A stretch of DNA of 64,000 nt from Patescibacteria group bacterium (GCA_038065715.1 JBBTQL010000006.1:2127-66126), one strand, 5' to 3'. Positions 13,349 through 62,671 are shown, counted from the first letter of the stretch. The notes: a model not told the origin generated them from the sequence alone. Program-made: numbers and translations.

Positions 13349-13966
13349 ATGGATAAAAATGATGAGCAAATTTTAGTGGTAAAATCAGGCATAATTTTTG
13401 AGAAAGGTGTTTGGCAGGGGTTAAAAACTGATAATTTGGATTATTATATTGATTTGATAAAAAATAACTGTGAATTTAAAAGAAGGGGCGATGCTGAAGA
13501 AGACGATTCTTTTCAGCAGATAATTCCATATATTGTTTTTAACTTTAAGGAACAATATTTTATTTATAAATATTTGCCTGAGGCCGGAGAAAAAAGGTTA
13601 GTTGATACTTATCAACTTGGAGTTGGCGGCCACATAAATCCGATTGATGAAAAAAATGGCAATACTTTGGAAGCTGGAATGATGCGGGAGTGGAATGAAG
13701 AGGTAGATTTTAAGGGAAACATTTTAGAAAAAAAATTAGTTGGATTATTAAATGACGATTCAAGGCCAGTTGAAAGGGTGCATTTGGGATTAGTTTATAA
13801 TTTTGTAGGAGATAGCCCTGAAATTTCTATAAAAGAAACAGATAAAATGGAAGGCAAATTGGTTGATTTAAAAGACATCGGAAAATATATTGAAGGCAAC
13901 AAAGGAATTTGGGTTCAACTGGTTTATAGGGATTATTTATCAAAACCGCAAAATGATAAAAAATAA
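13349..13966 (+). CDS. Hypothetical protein with a degenerate Nudix-like box
   Basis: GGHINPID...EAGMMREWNEEVDF. Confidence 0.5.
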   Translation: MDKNDEQILVVKSGIIFEKGVWQGLKTDNLDYYIDLIKNNCEFKRRGDAEEDDSFQQIIPYIVFNFKEQYFIYKYLPEAGEKRLVDTYQLGVGGHINPIDEKNGNTLEAGMMREWNEEVDFKGNILEKKLVGLLNDDSRPVERVHLGLVYNFVGDSPEISIKETDKMEGKLVDLKDIGKYIEGNKGIWVQLVYRDYLSKPQNDKK

Positions 13967-54702: not shown

Positions 54703-54960
54703 ATGTTTTCAGTATATATTTTACAAAGTTTAAAGGATAAACGCACTTATGTTGGTTTTAGTGATAATGTTGAAAAGAGGTTGATCAGACATAATCAAGG
54801 ATATATCAATGCAACAAAATATAGGCGTCCTTTCAAGGTTTTATTTACAGAAAAAGCAAGAGACATGCAAGAAGCTAAAAAAAGAGAAAAATATTGGAAA
54901 AGTGGAGCCGGACGGCGGAAATTAAAATATTATTTTGAAAACGGGTTTCCCTGCCCTTAA
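54703..54960 (+). CDS. Small GIY-YIG nuclease family protein (UPF0213/COG2827-like)
   Basis: VYILQS...RTYVGFSDNVEKRLIRHNQG...EAKKREKYWK. The stop codon lies in the hairpin ccctgccc ttaaa gggcgggg (54949-54969). Confidence 0.8.
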   Translation: MFSVYILQSLKDKRTYVGFSDNVEKRLIRHNQGYINATKYRRPFKVLFTEKARDMQEAKKREKYWKSGAGRRKLKYYFENGFPCP

Positions 54961-54977: not shown

Positions 54978-56579
54978 TTACAGTATGCGAGTGTGGTTCA
55001 ATGGTAGAATGATTCCTTCCCAAGGAATAGACGGGGGTTCGATTCCCCTCACTCGCTCCGTAATAAAACTTTTTTCTCTTTTCCCGACGAATTCGCGGGC
55101 GGCCAAAACGGCCGCCCATTGCGTTTTGAGAGGGGAATTCGTTTCGCTCGGCGCGCTGCGGCGCGCCTCGCGGTTTTGCAAAATGAGGTTCGAGCCGAAG
55201 ATTTCTTTGGTGGCGACCTTTTTCGCAAAAAGGTCGCTGTCGTTTGCGATTTTATCTATGGATTCCGCTTCCTTTATCCAATTTCTCATCGGTTCGAGCC
55301 AGCCAATTTGCTTTTGTTCAAGATGAGATATTTTCTCCTCCAGCGACTTTTTCTCGGAAAGCAATTTTGCTTTTTCAGTTCGGTAGATTTCTCTTTCAAT
55401 ATCCTGTTCTAAATAACCGTCTAAAAGTCGCTGGAGCTTAACGGAAATTTCCACAATTCTTTTTTTGTTTTCTTGAACAAAAGCGATTAAGGATTGGGCG
55501 GTTTTGGTTTTGTCTTTTTCCAGCATTTTATTCAATTCGTCCGCCCAATCTTTTTTCAAAGAAAATTTTTGAAGCAAAAGCGAAATTTGTTTATTCAAAA
55601 CTTCTTGGCGAATGCAAGGTTCGTTGCATTTTGTAATTTTTGATTTATGAGTACAGTGGTAGTAAGTGTAGTAATGTTGGTTTCCGTTTTTTTGTTTTTT
55701 AACCTTGTATTCGCCGGTTATTGCCATTCCGCAATTTCCGCAACGAAGTAGTCCGCAAAATGCTTGCGGTTCATTCTTTTGTTTGTGGTGAGGTCTGCCT
55801 CTTTGCTTTAAAATTTCCTGAACTCTATCAAAAATTTTCTTTGAAATTATTGGCTGGTGTTTACCTTCGTGTGTTTCGCCAGCATAACGGAATAATCCGA
55901 CATAGAACGGATTGGAAAGGATAAAAGAAATTCTGTCTCGTTTTAATAGTTTTCCGCTTCTCGCGCTAATTCCTTGTTGCGCCAAAAAGTTAGAAATATC
56001 TTCAAGACGAGAATTGTTTTCGGCGTACAATTCAAACATTTTTCGGATTATTGGCGATTTCTTTTTATCTACAACTACATTTTTAATTCTCGGGTCGTTT
56101 AAATATCCTATCGGGGCAAAGCCTGGATATTCGCCTCGTTTAACTTTTTGGCGCAAACCTCGTTTTGTGTTTTCGGAAAGACTGTCAACATAGTATTTGC
56201 TTTGCCCGAAAGCAATATTTAACATAAATTTTCCCTGCGGAGTTGATTCAAACCAGAATGTTGGAAATTTCAGCATCGTTAAATGCCCGCAGTCCAAAAG
56301 ATAAATGATTTTCCCTCCGTCAACAGAATTGCGCGCCAGACGGTCGGGGTGCCACGCCAAAATTCCTTGGGCTTGGCCTTTTTCAATTCGTTTTATCATT
56401 TCGTTAAAAATCGGGCGGCCGGGAATTTTGGCTGATTGTTTTTCAATCAGCTCCTCAAGTATTTCAAGGTTTTCCTGTTTGGCAAAAGCGCGCAATTCTG
56501 CAATTTGGTCCTCAATAGAACGAACTTGTTTGTCCTCAACATCTGTGGATTTGCGGGCATACAAAAAGAATTTTTGCAT
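54978..56579 (-). CDS. Large serine recombinase
   Basis: N-terminal resolvase domain (YARKSTDVEDKQVRSIEDQ, catalytic Ser context; HPDRLARN). Recombinase domain. Zinc ribbon (CGNCG...HC). Coiled coil. The last ~70 codons are encoded by inverted repeat a and by the antisense of tRNA-Gly. Confidence 0.85.
   Translation of the reverse strand: MQKFFLYARKSTDVEDKQVRSIEDQIAELRAFAKQENLEILEELIEKQSAKIPGRPIFNEMIKRIEKGQAQGILAWHPDRLARNSVDGGKIIYLLDCGHLTMLKFPTFWFESTPQGKFMLNIAFGQSKYYVDSLSENTKRGLRQKVKRGEYPGFAPIGYLNDPRIKNVVVDKKKSPIIRKMFELYAENNSRLEDISNFLAQQGISARSGKLLKRDRISFILSNPFYVGLFRYAGETHEGKHQPIISKKIFDRVQEILKQRGRPHHKQKNEPQAFCGLLRCGNCGMAITGEYKVKKQKNGNQHYYTYYHCTHKSKITKCNEPCIRQEVLNKQISLLLQKFSLKKDWADELNKMLEKDKTKTAQSLIAFVQENKKRIVEISVKLQRLLDGYLEQDIEREIYRTEKAKLLSEKKSLEEKISHLEQKQIGWLEPMRNWIKEAESIDKIANDSDLFAKKVATKEIFGSNLILQNREARRSAPSETNSPLKTQWAAVLAAREFVGKREKSFITERVRGIEPPSIPWEGIILPLNHTRIL
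54987..55057 (+). tRNA. tRNA-Gly (anticodon CCC)
   Basis: Manual cloverleaf: GCGAGTG TG GTTC AATGGTA GAAT G ATTCC TTCCCAA GGAAT AGAC GGGGG TTCGATT CCCCT CACTCGC T. Confidence 0.9.
55056..55190 (+). repeat. Inverted repeat a (135 nt), left end of the element
   Basis: Perfect reverse complement of 56794-56928, checked base by base. Confidence 0.95.
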
Positions 56580-56600
56580 AGATTTTTAAACTAAAAGCGA

Positions 56601-56707
56601 CTGGAAGTAATGAGCTAATTGTTGAGGTTAGCCAGTTTCCAGCCGCTTTTAATATTCTATTGTTAGGAATAAAATACTCATTACTGAACTAACTAACCTC
56701 AACAATT
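56601..56707. promoter_or_regulatory. Interleaved inverted repeats upstream of the recombinase start
   Basis: X agtaatgag (56606-14) pairs with ctcattact (56677-85). Y aattgttgaggttag (56617-31) pairs with ctaacctcaacaatt (56693-707). A local hairpin ctggaa...ttccag spans 56601-56642. Confidence 0.4.
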
Positions 56708-56793
56708 TCATTATACCACGCTAAATCCAAAAGCAAAAATTCTTTTTTTCTGGCAAAGAAAAAAACGAGACAGAATTAAAATCGCAACGACGA

Positions 56794-57122
56794 AACCTCA
56801 TTTTGCAAAACCGCGAGGCGCGCCGCAGCGCGCCGAGCGAAACGAATTCCCCTCTCAAAACGCAATGGGCGGCCGTTTTGGCCGCCCGCGAATTCGTCGG
56901 GAAAAGAGAAAAAAGTTTTATTACGGAGTATATTTACAACTACGCTCGAACTTACTTTATCAAAAATTCGTGAGAAAAACAATTGCCCACCCGCCGCAAA
57001 GCGGCGGGCGGGCAGAAAACCCAAAAATCGCTCGGGCGGGGCGGGAAGAAAAAGGGGTGTGGGGAAAATGAATTCCCGCCCCGCCCTCGCTCTCGTCGCA
57101 GGCAAAATTTTTTTAGAGCAGA
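56794..57122 (-). repeat. Internal 329-nt inverted copy of the joined element ends (a' + b')
   Basis: 56794-56928 is the reverse complement of 55056-55190. 56926-57122 is the reverse complement of 60831-61027. Both matches are perfect and overlap at the GAG core. Confidence 0.95.
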
Positions 57123-57797
57123 CTAATCATTCAAAATTTCGTCCATACAAAATTTAGCAAGATCGGCCTTGCTTATTTTTTTGCAAATCGATAAATCCTT
57201 CGTGTTCCACGCTAACAATACGTAGCAATCATCCGCATGAGCTTTATAATTGGTCGACTGAATACAGACGTCTGGGTTCGGATTTGAAACATTTCTGACA
57301 AACGTTAAAAAGCATTGCGCTTTTAGCACGTCATCATATGCATTATTTTGGCAAATTGATATATTATTCAGTTTAGCGGCAAAAAAACCAAAACAATCTC
57401 CTCTTATCCAAGAATCTTTTTCTGAAATATCTAGACACTTTTTAGACGCTTCCCTCAAATCCATACCACTCAATACATAACATTGATTCCGAAAATCTAT
57501 ACCTGTCTTATCGGCAGAAGAACCTCCAATGCTTATAAAATCGCAAGCTTTTGGATTTTTATTATTTATAGCAACATCATTAAAGCAAAGCTCTGGCTTG
57601 GCACACGGGAAACTTTCTTCGCAATGATCTGTTGGTGGAGCTAAATAACACAAAATGGGCACGTTGAGTTTGGTTGCCAATGCGGTTAAATCTTGACGAT
57701 CGTAAAAAGATGCACTGATAAAATGCAAAGCAAAAAGTATAAAGGGGAGAAGGATTATTAATACTAGTATCGATATAGCAATTATTGCTTTTTTCAT
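57123..57797 (-). CDS. Secreted/membrane-anchored protein built of about 5 cysteine-pair repeats
   Basis: N-terminal signal/TM. Recurrent C-x(2)-I-S...C-(Y/F) units (ACDFIS..NQCY, KCLDIS..GDCF, ICQNN..AQCF, VCIQS..DDCY, ICKKIS..KFC). Confidence 0.6.
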   Translation of the reverse strand: MKKAIIAISILVLIILLPFILFALHFISASFYDRQDLTALATKLNVPILCYLAPPTDHCEESFPCAKPELCFNDVAINNKNPKACDFISIGGSSADKTGIDFRNQCYVLSGMDLREASKKCLDISEKDSWIRGDCFGFFAAKLNNISICQNNAYDDVLKAQCFLTFVRNVSNPNPDVCIQSTNYKAHADDCYVLLAWNTKDLSICKKISKADLAKFCMDEILND

Positions 57798-57820
57798 CTT
57801 GGAAGTGTTTTTATTTTATA

Positions 57821-57850
57821 AAATCCGCCCCATGTTTCAGGAGCGGATTT
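57821..57850 (-). terminator. Possible terminator between the two cargo genes
   Basis: AAATCCGC ... GCGGATTT stem. The T-rich tail is weak. Confidence 0.35.
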
Positions 57851-57854
57851 AGGA

Positions 57855-60488
57855 TTATTGTCCAAGCAAAGCTTTAATTTGTTGCATTATCGCTTGCAGA
57901 GCGGATGAAATAGATGCCAAACTGCTCTGTGAAACATTATAACTTGTCGCAGACGAAGCAATGGTGAATGACGAGCTGTTAACTGACACGGATTGTCCAT
58001 TGTAATAATCTTGTATGTTTATGAAATAATTACCGGCAGGTGTAAGTGATGCAGGGATTGTCCATGCATATGAGCCATTATTGGGCACATTGGTCGCAAC
58101 CCAATCGCCTGGATTTGAGCCACTTGCAAATGAAATATCCATAGTCTCGGAACCTGGAAGATTTTGCGAAGTCCATGTGATATTATGTGTTTCTCCGACT
58201 TTCCACGTTTCGCCACCACTCGGTGAAGTAATAATAATCGAAGGTTGGGCGGAATTCGCCGTTACGATATTGAAAGAATTATCACTATAATCCCTTCCTA
58301 TTTCGGTTCCGTTTCTTTGAACCATTACAAAAAGTTTGTATGCATATTGCGGGTTTGCTAACGAACTGGGTATTGTTGCTGAACAACTAATAGAGCTACC
58401 TGATAAATTACTGCAGAGTTGAGCCACCGCCGTTTCATTGGAATAAGCTATGTAAACAAATATTTTGTCTGTAGACAATAAATTAGCAGAACTCCATTTA
58501 AAATTATATGTTGAACCAGCATTAAGTTGCCCCCCGCCATTCGGATCAGTAACAGTGATTGATGGAGGCTGAACAGTTGGCGAACTTATGGTAAAGTAAT
58601 TGTCGCTGGAATCAGTAACTTGTGGAGCGTCCGGACCACTTTTTGAAACATATATCTTAAAATTACTACCGATGTTGTCGGAACTTGGAATAGTCCATGA
58701 ATATGTTCCAGCAGAAGCTGGGATATCATTGCCTACGCCAATATTTTGATAAGGGCCACCTATAAGGCCGATGTCTATATTTTGAGAGCTTAATCCTGTC
58801 GAATTCCATGTAATACTGTGGGTTTCTCCTACTTTCCACGTTTCTCCGCCATTTGGCGAAGTAACTGTAATAGAGGCAGTTGCCTGCGCCGTGGAGATAG
58901 TGAAAGCGTTGCTTAAAATTGTTCCGCTGGAGCCATTGTTTTGATAATCAATAGCGATTTTATATGTTCCAGGGATATAATTTGGATTATTAGGGTCTAT
59001 GAACCACGAATAACTACCCAAATTTGCCGAAACACTGGCTGGATTTCCAGATCCAATAGCATATCCATAGGTTTGTCCATTAGAATATCTTACTAATGTA
59101 AGACTAACTGTACTGTTTTGAGAAAAATTTGTTGTAGTCCAAGTTATGTTGTGCGTTTCTCCAACTTTCCAAGTCTCTCCGCCGTTTGGCGAAGTGACGG
59201 TGATTGATGGAGTATTTGTCTGACAATCACTATTTGTAGAACATGCCTTTCCACCCCCGCCAACAACACACTGATTACTGGAATTACAACTCGTTTGCGC
59301 TGTGGCGATAGTGAAATCGCTGTCGCTATAATCCCGCCCTATTTCCGTTCCATTTCTTTGAACCATTACAAAAAGTTTAAACTGTCTGTTTGGCAACGAT
59401 CCCAATAAGACGGGCACAGTGTCTGAACAAGTAGTAGCATTACCAGCTAAAACACCGCAAATTTGGTAGTTTGAAGCCCCGCCGTTATTTAAATAGACAT
59501 ATATTTTATCTGTAGAAAATAAATTGTTAGAACTCCACCTAAAGGTATATGTTGATCCAGCATTAAGAGTCTCTCCACCACTCGGATAGGTAGCCGTAAT
59601 TGAAGGTGGCTGAACTGTCGGAGAACTTATGGTAAAATAGTTATCGCTAGAATCAGTTACACTTGGAGAAGATGGGCCACTTTTTGAAACATATATTTTA
59701 AAATTACTGCCGACATTGTCCGAAGATGGAATGGTCCAAGAATAAGTTCCGGCAGAAGCTGGAATGTCATTGGCAACGCTAATGTTCTGGTAAGGACCGC
59801 CTATAAGCCCAATGTCTATATTTTGAGAACCCATTCCAGTAGAAGCCCATGTTATATTGTGTGTTTCTCCGACTTTCCAAGTCTCTCCGCCGTTTGGCGA
59901 AGTTACAGTAATGGTTGGCTGTGTCGAACTGCATGTCTGCGTTGACACTGGCTGACCCGTAGTTATTCCACAATTATTGGAATCAGTGCAGGTTCTTGTT
60001 TGCTGACCATTGGAACAGGTTGACCAATTTGTGCAAGTCCAATTTCGGGTACAGGTCGGCGGAGTTACCCCGCATCCATATAAACCATTTAATTTTACTC
60101 TTGTTTTCGGACCAACATAACCACTTAAAGGGGTGATTGAATATTTCTGTTGGAATTGAATAACTGCTGATGCGGTTCCTTCATTATAAATATTTCCTGT
60201 GTCCGGGGAATAAGAAAATCCCTGTTTATCTAAAATTGTATGCAAAGCACCAACTTCGGTGCTTCCTGAATTTGCAAATCCTAAATTAGTATTAAAAGTA
60301 TGACACCAAGCTTGTCCACCTTGTTGCTGAGCAATTAATTGCTGTATTTGTTGCATTAGAGATTGAATTTGTGCCTGCAATTGCGCAATTAATGCTGAAT
60401 TATCTGTGGCTTGTGCACTAACAAAACCAGCAGAACCTAAAATTGCTGTTGCGAGAACAGCTGTTACTAATAAAAATTTAATCTTCAT
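57855..60488 (-). CDS. Large surface protein: signal peptide, Gln-rich coiled coil, peptidoglycan-binding-like domain, repeated Ig-like modules
   Basis: PG_binding_1-like (GALHTILDKQGF...SAVIQFQQKYSI...GYVGPKTRVKL). Four modules starting I(T/I)VTSP(N/S)GGETWKVGETH(N/S)ITW. Two near-duplicate blocks of about 250 aa. Confidence 0.75.
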   Translation of the reverse strand: MKIKFLLVTAVLATAILGSAGFVSAQATDNSALIAQLQAQIQSLMQQIQQLIAQQQGGQAWCHTFNTNLGFANSGSTEVGALHTILDKQGFSYSPDTGNIYNEGTASAVIQFQQKYSITPLSGYVGPKTRVKLNGLYGCGVTPPTCTRNWTCTNWSTCSNGQQTRTCTDSNNCGITTGQPVSTQTCSSTQPTITVTSPNGGETWKVGETHNITWASTGMGSQNIDIGLIGGPYQNISVANDIPASAGTYSWTIPSSDNVGSNFKIYVSKSGPSSPSVTDSSDNYFTISSPTVQPPSITATYPSGGETLNAGSTYTFRWSSNNLFSTDKIYVYLNNGGASNYQICGVLAGNATTCSDTVPVLLGSLPNRQFKLFVMVQRNGTEIGRDYSDSDFTIATAQTSCNSSNQCVVGGGGKACSTNSDCQTNTPSITVTSPNGGETWKVGETHNITWTTTNFSQNSTVSLTLVRYSNGQTYGYAIGSGNPASVSANLGSYSWFIDPNNPNYIPGTYKIAIDYQNNGSSGTILSNAFTISTAQATASITVTSPNGGETWKVGETHSITWNSTGLSSQNIDIGLIGGPYQNIGVGNDIPASAGTYSWTIPSSDNIGSNFKIYVSKSGPDAPQVTDSSDNYFTISSPTVQPPSITVTDPNGGGQLNAGSTYNFKWSSANLLSTDKIFVYIAYSNETAVAQLCSNLSGSSISCSATIPSSLANPQYAYKLFVMVQRNGTEIGRDYSDNSFNIVTANSAQPSIIITSPSGGETWKVGETHNITWTSQNLPGSETMDISFASGSNPGDWVATNVPNNGSYAWTIPASLTPAGNYFINIQDYYNGQSVSVNSSSFTIASSATSYNVSQSSLASISSALQAIMQQIKALLGQ

Positions 60489-60682
60489 ATTTTTTTACCT
60501 AAATAAATTCGCAAAGTTTAGCCACTGCTGGCGAGACTACAAATTTAAAAAAGCAATTTTAAATTATTTAATTATATAACTTGCTCTAAAATTGTACAAC
60601 TTATGCACTTGCCTGTGGCGTAGAAACACAAAGCCCGCCGCTAGACCGAGACTTGCACCTCCCATACCCTTTCGGATATAGA

Positions 60683-60734
60683 CCACGAACATGGAGTCTG
60701 AACGACGGGTTCAGTATGTTCGTGGAATTTTTTT
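60683..60734. other. Long hairpin (10-bp outer and 6-bp inner stems) with a T-run on the + strand, inside the cargo-gene leader
   Basis: ccacgaacat ... ctgaac gacgg gttcag ... atgttcgtgg aattttttt. Confidence 0.5.
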
Positions 60735-60830
60735 GCCATGCTCAAAAATTTTAATTCTTGAGTTTAGGCAGTCAATATTTAATTGTTAAATTATTATACC
60801 AAAGAAAATAAGAAAGGTGAAGTGAGCAAA

Positions 60831-61027
60831 TCTGCTCTAAAAAAATTTTGCCTGCGACGAGAGCGAGGGCGGGGCGGGAATTCATTTTCCCCACACCCCT
60901 TTTTCTTCCCGCCCCGCCCGAGCGATTTTTGGGTTTTCTGCCCGCCCGCCGCTTTGCGGCGGGTGGGCAATTGTTTTTCTCACGAATTTTTGATAAAGTA
61001 AGTTCGAGCGTAGTTGTAAATATACTC
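60831..61027 (+). repeat. Inverted repeat b (197 nt), right end of the element
   Basis: Perfect reverse complement of 56926-57122, checked block by block. Contains the 13-bp stem gggcggggcggga/tcccgccccgccc and a second long GC hairpin. Confidence 0.95.
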
Positions 61028-61038
61028 ACGAATTTTTT

Positions 61039-61111
61039 GCCAGAGTAGCTCAGCTGGTAGAGCAACGGTATCGTAAACCGTAGGCCGCGAGTTCGAATCT
61101 CGCCTCTGGCT
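61039..61111 (+). tRNA. tRNA-Thr (anticodon CGT)
   Basis: Manual cloverleaf: GCCAGAG TA GCTC AGCTGGTA GAGC A ACGGT ATCGTAA ACCGT AGGCC GCGAG TTCGAAT CTCGC CTCTGGC T. Confidence 0.9.
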
Positions 61112-61158
61112 CTGTTTTTCAAGGCTTTACAAGTTCTTTGACAATGAGGGCCATAGCT

Positions 61159-61396: not shown

Positions 61397-61523
61397 AACC
61401 CCTCACTAATTTTACCAATAATTTATGTATTACCCCAATGACAGACGGAGTGAAGTAAGGCGAAGTCGCTTCGCCTAATAAAAATCTATTTCAACTTACA
61501 TGGCTGAAATTAGTGATGGGGTT
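61397..61523. repeat. 127-nt intergenic unit bounded by 17-nt inverted repeats (MITE-like)
   Basis: aacccctcactaattt ... aaattagtgatggggtt (one mismatch). Inner hairpin aggcgaag tc gcttcgcct. Confidence 0.6.
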
Positions 61524-61557
61524 TGGAATTTTATTAAAAATATGTTAAATTAGAAAA

Positions 61558-62671
61558 ATGACAGATTTAACTCCGCAAATAAAAGAGCTTCAAGAAAAAC
61601 TCCAGCATTTGGGAGACTGCCTTTGACGTTGAGCAAAAAGAAAAAGAAATAAAAGAGTTTGAAAAAGAAATGCAACTGCCTGGCTTTTGGAATGATAACG
61701 AAAAAGCAAAAAACATAAGCCAAAAAGTTTCTGTCCTAAAAGAGGATATTGAAAACAACGAATTGCTAAAAAAAGAATTGGCCGATTTAGTTGAGTTTAA
61801 TAGTTTAACGAAAGAAGACGAAAGTTTATCAGAAAACTTGGAAGACAAATTTTTGCAGCTTAAAATAAAAATAGAAAAAGAAGAGATAAAAACATTCTTG
61901 TCTGGAAAGTACGATAAAAATAATGCCATATTGGAAATATATTCTGGGGCAGGAGGCCAAGATTCGCAAGATTGGGCAACAATGCTGTTGCGCATGTATC
62001 AAAGATATTGCGCGACAAAAGGTTTTGAAACAGAAATTTTACATCAGTCATTTGGCGAATCTGGAGGGCCTGAAGGAAGAATTGGCACTAAAGCTGTAAC
62101 GCTGGAAATAAAAGGTAATTACGCTTTTGGTTTTTTGAAAAAAGAAACAGGAGTGCATAGATTAGTAAGGCAATCGCCTTTTTCAGCTCAAAAATTAAGG
62201 CACACTTCTTTTGCATTAATAGAGGTAATGCCAGAATTAAAAAAAGAAGAATCAGATATAGAAATAAAGCCAGAAGATTTGAAAATTGATACATTTAAGG
62301 CTTCGGGGCCCGGAGGGCAATATGTAAACAAAACAGAATCAGCAATAAGGCTGACCCATATAAAAACCGGCATAGCAGTTTCTTCGCAGTCAGAAAGATC
62401 TCAGGGAAAAAACAGGGAGAACGCAATGAAAATTTTGTATGCCAAGCTTTACCAGTTGAGAGAATCAGAAAAATCAAAAGAAATAAAAGAAATAAAGGGC
62501 GACAGGGTTTCAGCTCGCTTTGGGAATCAAATAAGGTCTTATGTATTGCATCCTTACAAAATGGTAAAAGATTTAAGGACTCAATATGAAACATCGGATG
62601 CAGAGGGGGTTTTAAACGGAAAGCTTGAAGAATTTATAGAGTCAGAAATTAAAGACAAAGAAATAAAATGA
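61558..62671 (+). CDS. prfB: Peptide chain release factor 2, with programmed +1 frameshift at 61621-61627
   Basis: Frame 0 gives MTDLTPQIKELQEKLQHLGDCL, then CTT TGA C with GGGAG upstream. The +1 frame continues DVEQKEKE... into the 61670 ORF. SPF and GGQ motifs are present (QSPFSAQ; SGPGGQYVNK). Confidence 0.9.

Follow-up and report, generated by a model that had tools for sequence, protein, structure and literature searches.

A segment of ~6 kb between a tRNA-Gly(CCC) and a tRNA-Thr(CGT) gene of a Patescibacteria group bacterium is probably an integrated mobile element of a large serine recombinase (LSR), which carries a spare inverted copy of its own attachment site (attP) and belongs to a Patescibacteria-wide family of such elements. 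The window, i.e. the whole stretch of DNA analysed, comprised 64,000 nt (GCA_038065715.1 JBBTQL010000006.1:2127-66126) and originated from metagenomes of the Hainich aquifer well H43. In the window, tRNA genes were called by ARAGORN and Rfam, and protein domains by Pfam. The outer repeat arms are named a and b, their inner inverted copies a' and b', the recombinase arc R and the cargo arc C; L-numbers (L001 etc.) refer to homologous loci and contigs gathered for comparison.

Repeat layout and target site

The element is delimited by two pairs of inverted repeats, whose outer copies adjoin the two tRNA genes and whose inner copies abut each other:

54987-55059, + strand: tRNA-Gly(CCC), integration target and B-type left half-site (ARAGORN; Rfam tRNA, 69.3 bits)
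55056-55058, + strand: outer left core CTC, crossover region of the left attachment site (attL), overlap of arm a and tRNA 3' end
55056-55190, + strand: arm a, outer copy, 135 nt, 100% reverse complement of 56794-56928 (repeat search)
56794-56928, - strand: arm a', inner inverted copy of a, 100% identical (repeat search)
56926-57122, - strand: arm b', inner inverted copy of b, 197 nt, 100% identical (repeat search)
60831-61027, + strand: arm b, outer copy, 197 nt, with a terminator at 60939-60969 and a P half-site at 60986-61027
61025-61027, + strand: outer right core CTC, right attachment site (attR), at the end of arm b
61039-61112, + strand: tRNA-Thr(CGT), right flank of the target, B' side (ARAGORN, Rfam)

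Perfect repeats of 135 and 197 nt cannot be due to chance, and no further copies of a or b were found anywhere in the window. The inner arms overlap by 3 nt (56926-56928), which read GAG, or CTC on the opposite strand. Arm a starts within the final 4 nt called for tRNA-Gly, with tRNA nucleotides 72-74 as the shared core, and arm b ends 11 nt before tRNA-Thr, which lies outside the core. Insertion left tRNA-Gly intact, as both ARAGORN and Rfam still call it. An earlier note, made by a model from the sequence alone, had described the two inverted pairs, the 3-nt GAG/CTC core shared by the abutting inner copies, and outer ends at the last bases of tRNA-Gly and 11 nt before tRNA-Thr; both pairs were recovered by the repeat search, the core was seen where it had been placed, and the tRNA calls matched the outer ends.

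Within the right end, a 13-nt exact direct repeat, CTCACGAATTTTT, occurs at 60979-60991 (inside arm b) and at 61025-61037 (the b|flank junction, i.e. core plus right flank). The two CTCACGAATTTTT copies flank a 33-nt P half-site, and part of the repeat, GAATTTTTGATAAA, is kept in the b arms of related elements.

Attachment sites and the half-site rule

For comparison, a family set of 80 loci from species-representative genomes and 80 from metagenomes was scanned by self-BLAST, ARAGORN and a hidden Markov model (HMM) of the inner site. The HMM was trained on 26 inner junctions, the window's own among them, which align as a conserved site of ~85 nt with the consensus AAAAT(A/G)GGTTCGAGC-N3-GTTGTAAAA-N3-[nt72, nt73, CCA]-N4-GGACTTT... 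The window holds one complete copy:

56884-56967, - strand: complete inner attP consisting of b-end, core and a-start (nhmmer, model positions 2-85, E=4.9e-16; the window site being in the training set)

In the HMM scan of the window three sites only were found, i.e. this full attP, a P half at 60986-61027 and a P' half at 55055-55099, so the second, intact and inverted attP-like copy that had been claimed is borne out by the family model. The shared core always starts at the last acceptor base of the target tRNA, and spans the discriminator together with CCA where this is encoded. The b-end contains a T-loop-like GGTTCGA, and the distance from the TTCNA motif to the core is 21-22 nt in b-ends versus 17-18 nt in tRNAs, a difference of +4 in all 18 scorable loci (left half-sites only). 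In serine integrases the motif of the zinc ribbon domain lies nearer the centre in attB, the attachment site of the host, than in attP, by 5 bp for LI Int and by 4 bp for SPbeta Int (PMC11722253). The T-loop motif being shifted 4 nt outward in b, b-core-a therefore qualifies as a genuine attP, with the tRNA 3' end as its attB, and the origin that the earlier note had proposed for the layout follows the serine-integrase half-site rule.

Recombinase gene and recombinase arc

The recombinase arc consists of one gene and its upstream region; the a...a' segment contains only the recombinase gene and 214 nt of upstream DNA:

54978-56579, - strand: large serine recombinase, 533 aa (Pfam PF00239, PF07508, PF13408; PDB homologues)
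56580-56793, - strand: recombinase promoter and structured 5' leader (TGGTATAAT-type promoter found by eye; not listed by the consensus promoter scan)

The protein has a Resolvase domain (PF00239, E=1.4e-22, residues 5-150) with a 'YARKSTD' motif near the N-terminus, and the Recombinase (PF07508, 6.9e-17) and Zn_ribbon_recom (PF13408, 4e-08) domains; by eye, residues ~340-440 are rich in heptad-like charged repeats. Its closest solved relatives in phmmer were the integrases of A118 (4kis, 1.3e-12) and SPbeta (9dxh, 5e-10). The enzyme is a large serine recombinase of the integrase type, in agreement with every criterion of this class that can be tested on sequence, and as such had been predicted correctly.

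The recombinase reading frame has no stop codon inside the element, but runs through arm a and then through the whole antisense tRNA-Gly. Since the open reading frame (ORF) reads past the core, the last ~25 residues of the recombinase are set by the integration site. The earlier note had placed the recombinase inside the element, but the crossing of the att site by its gene had been overlooked. Database proteins of 522 aa end in '...EYIYNxARTYFIKNS', which corresponds to the recombinase read across attP into b, and the tRNA-facing copies end in antisense-tRNA peptides. Outer arm a also encodes, on the minus strand, 45 codons near the recombinase 3' end, and contains an intrinsic terminator (55097-55117) for transcripts coming in from tRNA-Gly, which points from the core to the recombinase arc. 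The recombinase promoter and leader lie inside the arc and would flip along with it.

Two protein-level readings of the inner junction were rejected. A stand-alone integrase C-terminus encoded by a' (ORF 56803-56973) as a small regulator has no conserved start or frame across clades. Protein constraint on the b-end tail was discarded because the frame past the core differs among clades; the conservation of the b-end is therefore at DNA level.

The 5' leader in the window has a hairpin with a 21-bp stem (56617-56637/56687-56707; region 56580-56712, - strand). Most relatives (L095, L101, L017, L063, L089, L144, L176 and L057 examined) have, upstream of the recombinase, a long-range helix AATGGCCGTC...GGGCGGCCATTT in which some changes are compensatory, and the structured stretch 3' of the TGGTATAAT promoter may be a regulatory leader. 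At the inner edge of arm a, the coding stretch AAAGAAATCTTTGGCTCGAACCTC (...KEIFGSNL..., 55188-55215) is conserved at DNA level in many relatives, third positions included, and its reverse complement holds a further T-loop-like GGTTCGAGCC; this stretch may be an additional protein-binding site. In L176 and L177 an antisense tRNA-Trp cuts the recombinase gene short at ~residue 450 and the upstream inner attP is intact, which looks like a rearranged or decaying family member.

Support from independent assemblies

The whole layout was identical, base for base, in a second assembly (L005). Junction R|a' was independently present in L001 and L002, and junction C|b' was crossed by five short contigs (L010-L014) of other samples, including Logan assemblies. 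A third assembly breaks exactly at the arm boundaries, with one contig ending 39 nt into a', one representing the exact 3,708-nt cargo arc, and one beginning with the first base of b. The same population was also searched for element-free contigs via the exact flanking proteins (GIY-YIG, FtsE); all contigs had the element or broke at it. The metagenome-assembled genomes (MAGs) of the family derive from IDBA, MEGAHIT and SPAdes assemblies. Some family elements have arms only 90-96% identical, a divergence that neither an assembler artefact nor repeat collapse could yield. A chimeric assembly at the repeats, which the earlier note had named as a risk, is thus countered by junctions upheld in independent assemblies and in dozens of unrelated MAGs.

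Occurrence and conservation of the element family

Relatives of the recombinase were abundant in Patescibacteria metagenomes, with at least 8,000 protein matches, the best 120 of which were all 59-100% identical to the query. Relatives of 70-91% identity were found across candidate phyla, whereas the host GatA was without a relative above 84%; judged by these identities, the recombinase is more conserved than the housekeeping genes of its hosts. An a/a' inverted repeat surrounded the recombinase in 65 of the 74 loci with both flanks readable (median arm identity 99.2%; 28 pairs perfect), and the arrangement of the window was present in 54 of those 65. An antisense tRNA was located at the recombinase 3' end in 108 of 129 loci, and at least 33 different tRNA species were targeted. 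Where the sequence suffices, the cargo between b' and b amounts to 1-8 kb, with an overlap of 3-10 nt between the inner arms; element size is ~3.5-10 kb. Many family contigs stop 300-500 nt upstream of the recombinase, i.e. within the inner repeat. Down to ~50% recombinase identity, and in many Patescibacteria classes, the inner site was kept with both half-sites and a matching core. The two a arms within an element were identical to a median of 100%, versus 81.6% to the closest other element, which holds in 53 of 56 elements, and the arms therefore evolve in concert.

Phage origin was rejected, as the matches in IMG/VR amounted to a single divergent one (37% identical) and two that were truncated. 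No description of the architecture or of this Patescibacteria family was found in full-text searches of the literature, such absence being no proof of novelty. The layout is apparently undescribed, the enzyme class itself (large serine integrases) being known; the earlier statement that no described bacterial integrative element of such layout was known agrees with the literature searched, but the layout is no one-off, as it is conserved across a large Patescibacteria family.

Insertion, transfer and isomers

An empty site was present in the syntenic relative L097, which was reached through the contig of a GatA homologue. In this distant relative (GatA 77% identical), tRNA-Gly(ccc) at 13487-13558 and tRNA-Thr(cgt) at 13589-13662 are 30 nt apart with no element, within the same gene order as in the window (GatC-GatA ... 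DivIC ... PrfB-FtsE-FtsX). The two tRNA genes are thus adjacent in a relative lacking the element, as had been predicted, and the element of the window represents an insertion between them. In L022, which also has the Gly-Thr tRNA pair, the element is located after tRNA-Thr instead. An exact-pattern scan for empty sites (tRNA-Gly 3' end, 1-30 nt, tRNA-Thr 5' end) gave 0 matches in the Joint Genome Institute (JGI) metagenomes. The L097 spacer after tRNA-Gly (13556-13588), CTCAGTAATAAAATTTTCAG, is closely similar to the initial 16-20 nt of arm a (window 55056-55075), CTCCGTAATAAAACTTTTTT; it could be a natural B' half-site mimicked by P', or the footprint of a lost element.

Relatives of the window element in MAGs of two host species (L068 and L071) share a 10,321-nt unit, inner attP included, which is 99.97% identical. 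Identity extends from the outer b core across arm a and a further 12 nt within the conserved 3' end of the tRNA, whereas the tRNA-Leu genes are 88.6% identical and the flanks are unrelated; the cargo leucyl-tRNA synthetase is an extra paralogue of the host gene. On the evidence of these alignments, the family member was transferred horizontally as a whole unit.

Isomers were found in relatives. The recombinase arc was flipped in L070 and L102, giving tRNA(+)-a-rec->a'-b', and as the arms of L102 are 92% identical its assembly is unambiguous. In L109 and L131 attP-type junctions were present on both sides of the recombinase arc, as a circle would give, and no closed circle was seen. The independent flipping of the arcs that the earlier note had suggested is accordingly documented for the recombinase arc of relatives, but the window's own population gave no inversion evidence. 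Its 2-micron-like circle is still hypothetical, with no circle junction, replication gene or excess coverage found.

The cargo arc of L020 lies between two full attPs, and L057 has three arcs in a chain. Some genomes contain such three-arc chains with alternately oriented composite sites, and in others several oppositely oriented elements occupy neighbouring tRNAs; sites of this kind may drive local rearrangements at tRNA clusters. A homology-breakpoint look at module exchange at the inner core gave breakpoints piling up at -50, -130 and -175, the b-end itself being conserved. Loci with chained arcs or neighbouring elements were as follows:

L057, 5250-11518
L020, 7432-11524
L068, 13302-16742
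L047, 12475-14211

Cargo arc and flanking genes

The cargo arc of the window contains two genes and an RNA, all on the minus strand:

57123-57797, - strand: cargo gene 2, 224 aa, N-terminal hydrophobic segment, no Pfam family; stop codon adjoins arm b'
57855-60488, - strand: cargo gene 1, 877-aa secreted repeat protein (signal peptide, PG_binding_1, Kre9_KNH Ig-like repeats)
60648-60770, - strand: LOOT RNA (Rfam RF03000; 73.6 bits against a gathering score of 46.4, full-length model match)
60793-60821, - strand: promoter-like site TTCACC-17-TATAAT, with TG ahead of the second hexamer (consensus match only)

A terminator in arm b' with a 14-bp stem (57014-56984, - strand) closes the cargo operon, and the terminator of arm b points from the cargo arc to the core. 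The LOOT RNA lies between the promoter-like site and the 877-aa gene, 160 nt upstream of the latter, and could be a leader or a small RNA. It was ruled out as element machinery: no match was found in 7 other family loci, and it is therefore cargo. The 877-aa gene has an internal tandem duplication of ~1,041 nt (58165-59918; 79-83% identical), and six repeat units of ~320 nt coding for Kre9_KNH Ig-like domains. Cargo was heterogeneous in the family, 73 cargo ORFs including NUDIX proteins, aminoacyl-tRNA synthetases and methyltransferases, and its orientation relative to the recombinase was ~50:50 across loci.

Outside the element, an 85-aa stand-alone GIY-YIG nuclease-domain ORF (54703-54960, + strand) between DivIC and tRNA-Gly, which is missing at that position in L097, may be another small mobile or homing-type gene. 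The prfB gene 3' of tRNA-Thr (~61500-62671, + strand) is in two frames, with CTT TGA C at ~61621-61627 as the usual programmed +1 frameshift of release factor 2.

Proposed mechanism and alternative explanations

In the mechanism that we propose, attP is the ~85 nt of b-end, core and a-start, with a left half that imitates the tRNA T-loop 4 bp further from the crossover, and attB the 3' end of a tRNA gene, with the crossover near nt 72-74 (CTC in this element). By insertion between tRNA-Gly(CCC) and tRNA-Thr(CGT), attL (tRNA|a) and attR (b|flank) were formed, and the recombinase ORF was fused at its 3' end to antisense tRNA sequence; the empty site predicted for the window locus is CACTCGCTCACGAATTTTTTGCC. 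Typical family members carry the second complete inverted attP between recombinase and cargo modules, and because of this position each module is bracketed by inverted copies of one attP arm. The free form would be a circle with two inverted attPs, either of which may be usable: the gene-crossed attP would lead to the common form, in which the recombinase is directed towards the tRNA, and integration by the other attP, or a later inversion, to the rare flipped form. In the inverted arrangement, exchange between arms, including homologous exchange, would flip a module rather than delete it. The arms may further serve as orientation-independent transcriptional insulators, a blocking entry to the recombinase arc and b ending cargo transcripts. 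RDF-free excision via the inner attP (RDF, recombination directionality factor), integration of linear or single-stranded folded DNA, and two-attB cassette exchange were considered on paper, and none was uniquely supported.

Several observations weigh against a mobile element with a working spare attP. The inner copy was missing in 9 of the 74 loci (e.g. L063, L089, L095). The recombinase arc was nearly always in one orientation (54 common and 0 flipped in the count, the flipped L070 and L102 being outside its evaluable set), so that inversion must be infrequent or under negative selection. Recombination of attP with attL or attR is not carried out by canonical LSRs, and by textbook rules an LSR would thus not be expected to drive inversion. 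For attB, the definition of the right half-site is poor. The 73 cargo ORFs yielded no recognisable or shared gene for an RDF, replication or transfer. Coverages according to contig names were equal (12, 11 and 11), the contig of the cargo arc matching the chromosome contigs, and there is therefore no excess of free copies; read-level evidence for excision, circle junction or inversion was not obtained in this population.

A role for the spare attP may be conceived in an RDF-free control, in which a swapped C-terminal tail and gene orientation toggle the enzyme between a silent or excision-prone and an integration-competent state. We regard this as speculative and rather unlikely. It is suggested by the recombinase gene crossing the att site: the tail beyond the core would be antisense tRNA in the common form, and the conserved b arm in the circle or after arc inversion, and the orientation of the recombinase relative to the strongly transcribed tRNA would change as well. 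According to the title of a 2021 report by Abe and colleagues, cited in PMC11722253, the extreme C-terminus of SprA is said to be a potential component of a toggle switch controlling directionality. If true, the two-attP design would let modules swap or chain between tRNA loci as a natural cassette-exchange platform, in bacteria for which few other mobile elements are recognised.

Apart from the mobile element with a spare attP, the inner copy might be a functionless relic of an old partial inverted duplication, kept identical by RecA-type gene conversion within an ordinary single-attP island. Weak similarity extending past the sharp boundary of arm a, which suggests a longer original duplication, speaks for such a relic, as do the concerted evolution of the arms that gene conversion would give, the lack of an inner copy in a few relatives (L063, L089, L095 and others) and the near-constant orientation of the arc. 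A neutral relic should, however, decay or be lost, whereas both half-sites and the core are kept to ~50% recombinase identity in many classes, and the position of the inner site between the two modules is constant; a relic is therefore an unlikely origin. Serine-invertase segments, like the two arcs, lie between inverted repeats that have the crossover core at their outer ends, and the ~50:50 cargo orientation, the existence of flipped recombinase arcs and the secreted or surface proteins of the window cargo would suit a phase-variation system, mainly inverting its segments to switch surface cargo or its own expression rather than moving. Yet the cargo promoter, cargo terminator and recombinase promoter are all within arcs or arms, and flipping would therefore not alter expression; together with the heterogeneous cargo, a unit that moves between species and is missing from the syntenic relative, and an integrase-type LSR with P/B half-site asymmetry, this makes an inversion system distinctly improbable.

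It is highly improbable that two independent elements lie side by side, i.e. an insertion sequence-like recombinase unit with 135-nt terminal inverted repeats and a cargo unit with 197-nt inverted repeats. Each arc does have its own inverted-repeat pair, related recombinase-plus-arm modules occur with unrelated cargo, and arcs are chained in L057, but the inner arms always abut, share one core and are conserved as a single dyad-type site. Moreover, the outer arms are single halves of this site joined to tRNA or flank, the unit of L068 and L071 moved as one, and no locus was found with a lone recombinase arc whose a arms both adjoin non-b, non-tRNA DNA. As for an artefact by chimeric inverted joining at the repeats, the source is a short-read metagenome and several assemblies break at these repeats, but with the junctions recovered in at least six samples and assemblers, and the layout in dozens of unrelated MAGs, some with arms only 90-96% identical, its probability is next to nil.

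Significance

Patescibacteria (Candidate Phyla Radiation, CPR) account for a large part of bacterial diversity; their genomes are tiny, and their gene exchange is poorly understood. The element family may be a main vehicle of horizontal transfer in these bacteria, being abundant and bringing along accessory genes for surface proteins, NUDIX enzymes and additional aminoacyl-tRNA synthetases. The family would also be relevant to integrase engineering, as it provides a natural serine integrase with the universally conserved T-loop and 3' end of tRNA as attB, and with a target specificity apparently determined for the most part by the discriminator and the bases next to it. An intact attP within an integrated element contradicts the usual view of attP being consumed by integration, and raises questions on directionality control, rearrangement between tRNA loci and modular cargo exchange.

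Comparison with known systems

With large serine integrases (A118/LI Int, SPbeta SprA, phiC31, Bxb1) the system shares the catalytic, recombinase and zinc ribbon domains, sequence homology (A118, SPbeta), a short core, attL/attR flanks, and an outer motif 4 bp nearer the centre in attB, as for SPbeta Int. Their single attP is destroyed on integration, whereas here a second, intact inverted attP stays. In addition, insertion here is directed to the 3' ends of nearly all kinds of tRNA gene, one arm of attP imitates the T-loop, and the int gene extends across attP. An RDF could not be recognised, and the element is tiny and not phage-like. An attP inside the integrase gene, with integration altering or splitting the coding sequence, occurs in intP of Myxococcus phage Mx8 and int of Sulfolobus SSV1; these are likewise int genes spanning attP, but encode tyrosine integrases and are without an internal spare attP.

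Mu Gin, P1 Cin, p15B Min and Salmonella Hin act on unique segments that lie between inverted repeats and cross over at the outer ends of these, the Min system being multi-segment. These serine invertases are small (~190 aa, C-terminal helix-turn-helix), depend on an enhancer and Fis, are encoded outside the segment, use identical sites, and carry out no integration or transfer. Arcs bracketed by inverted repeats, crossover at their outer ends and multi-segment chains (Min) are alike, whereas the enzyme here is of the integrase type with 533 aa, not a small invertase, and acts at P/B-asymmetric sites.

The yeast 2-micron plasmid (Flp/FRT) would be alike if the element were excised, with two site-bearing inverted repeats and two unique arcs, one of which contains the recombinase. 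Flp is, however, a tyrosine recombinase of an autonomous replicon in which inversion drives copy amplification, whereas the element here has a serine recombinase, is integrated in a 64-kb chromosomal window at chromosome-level coverage, and would only be presumed to form a circle. It does not qualify as an autonomous circular replicon, with no replication genes among the window proteins or the family cargo ORFs.

The tycheposons of Prochlorococcus use tyrosine recombinases in 910 of 937 cases, and replication genes are present in many of them. Their insertion duplicates a longer stretch of the tRNA as direct repeats, and no internal inverted att site is reported for them. What the two have in common is that both are small cargo elements at tRNA 3' ends, with modular and variable cargo and several elements per genome, in hosts with streamlined genomes.

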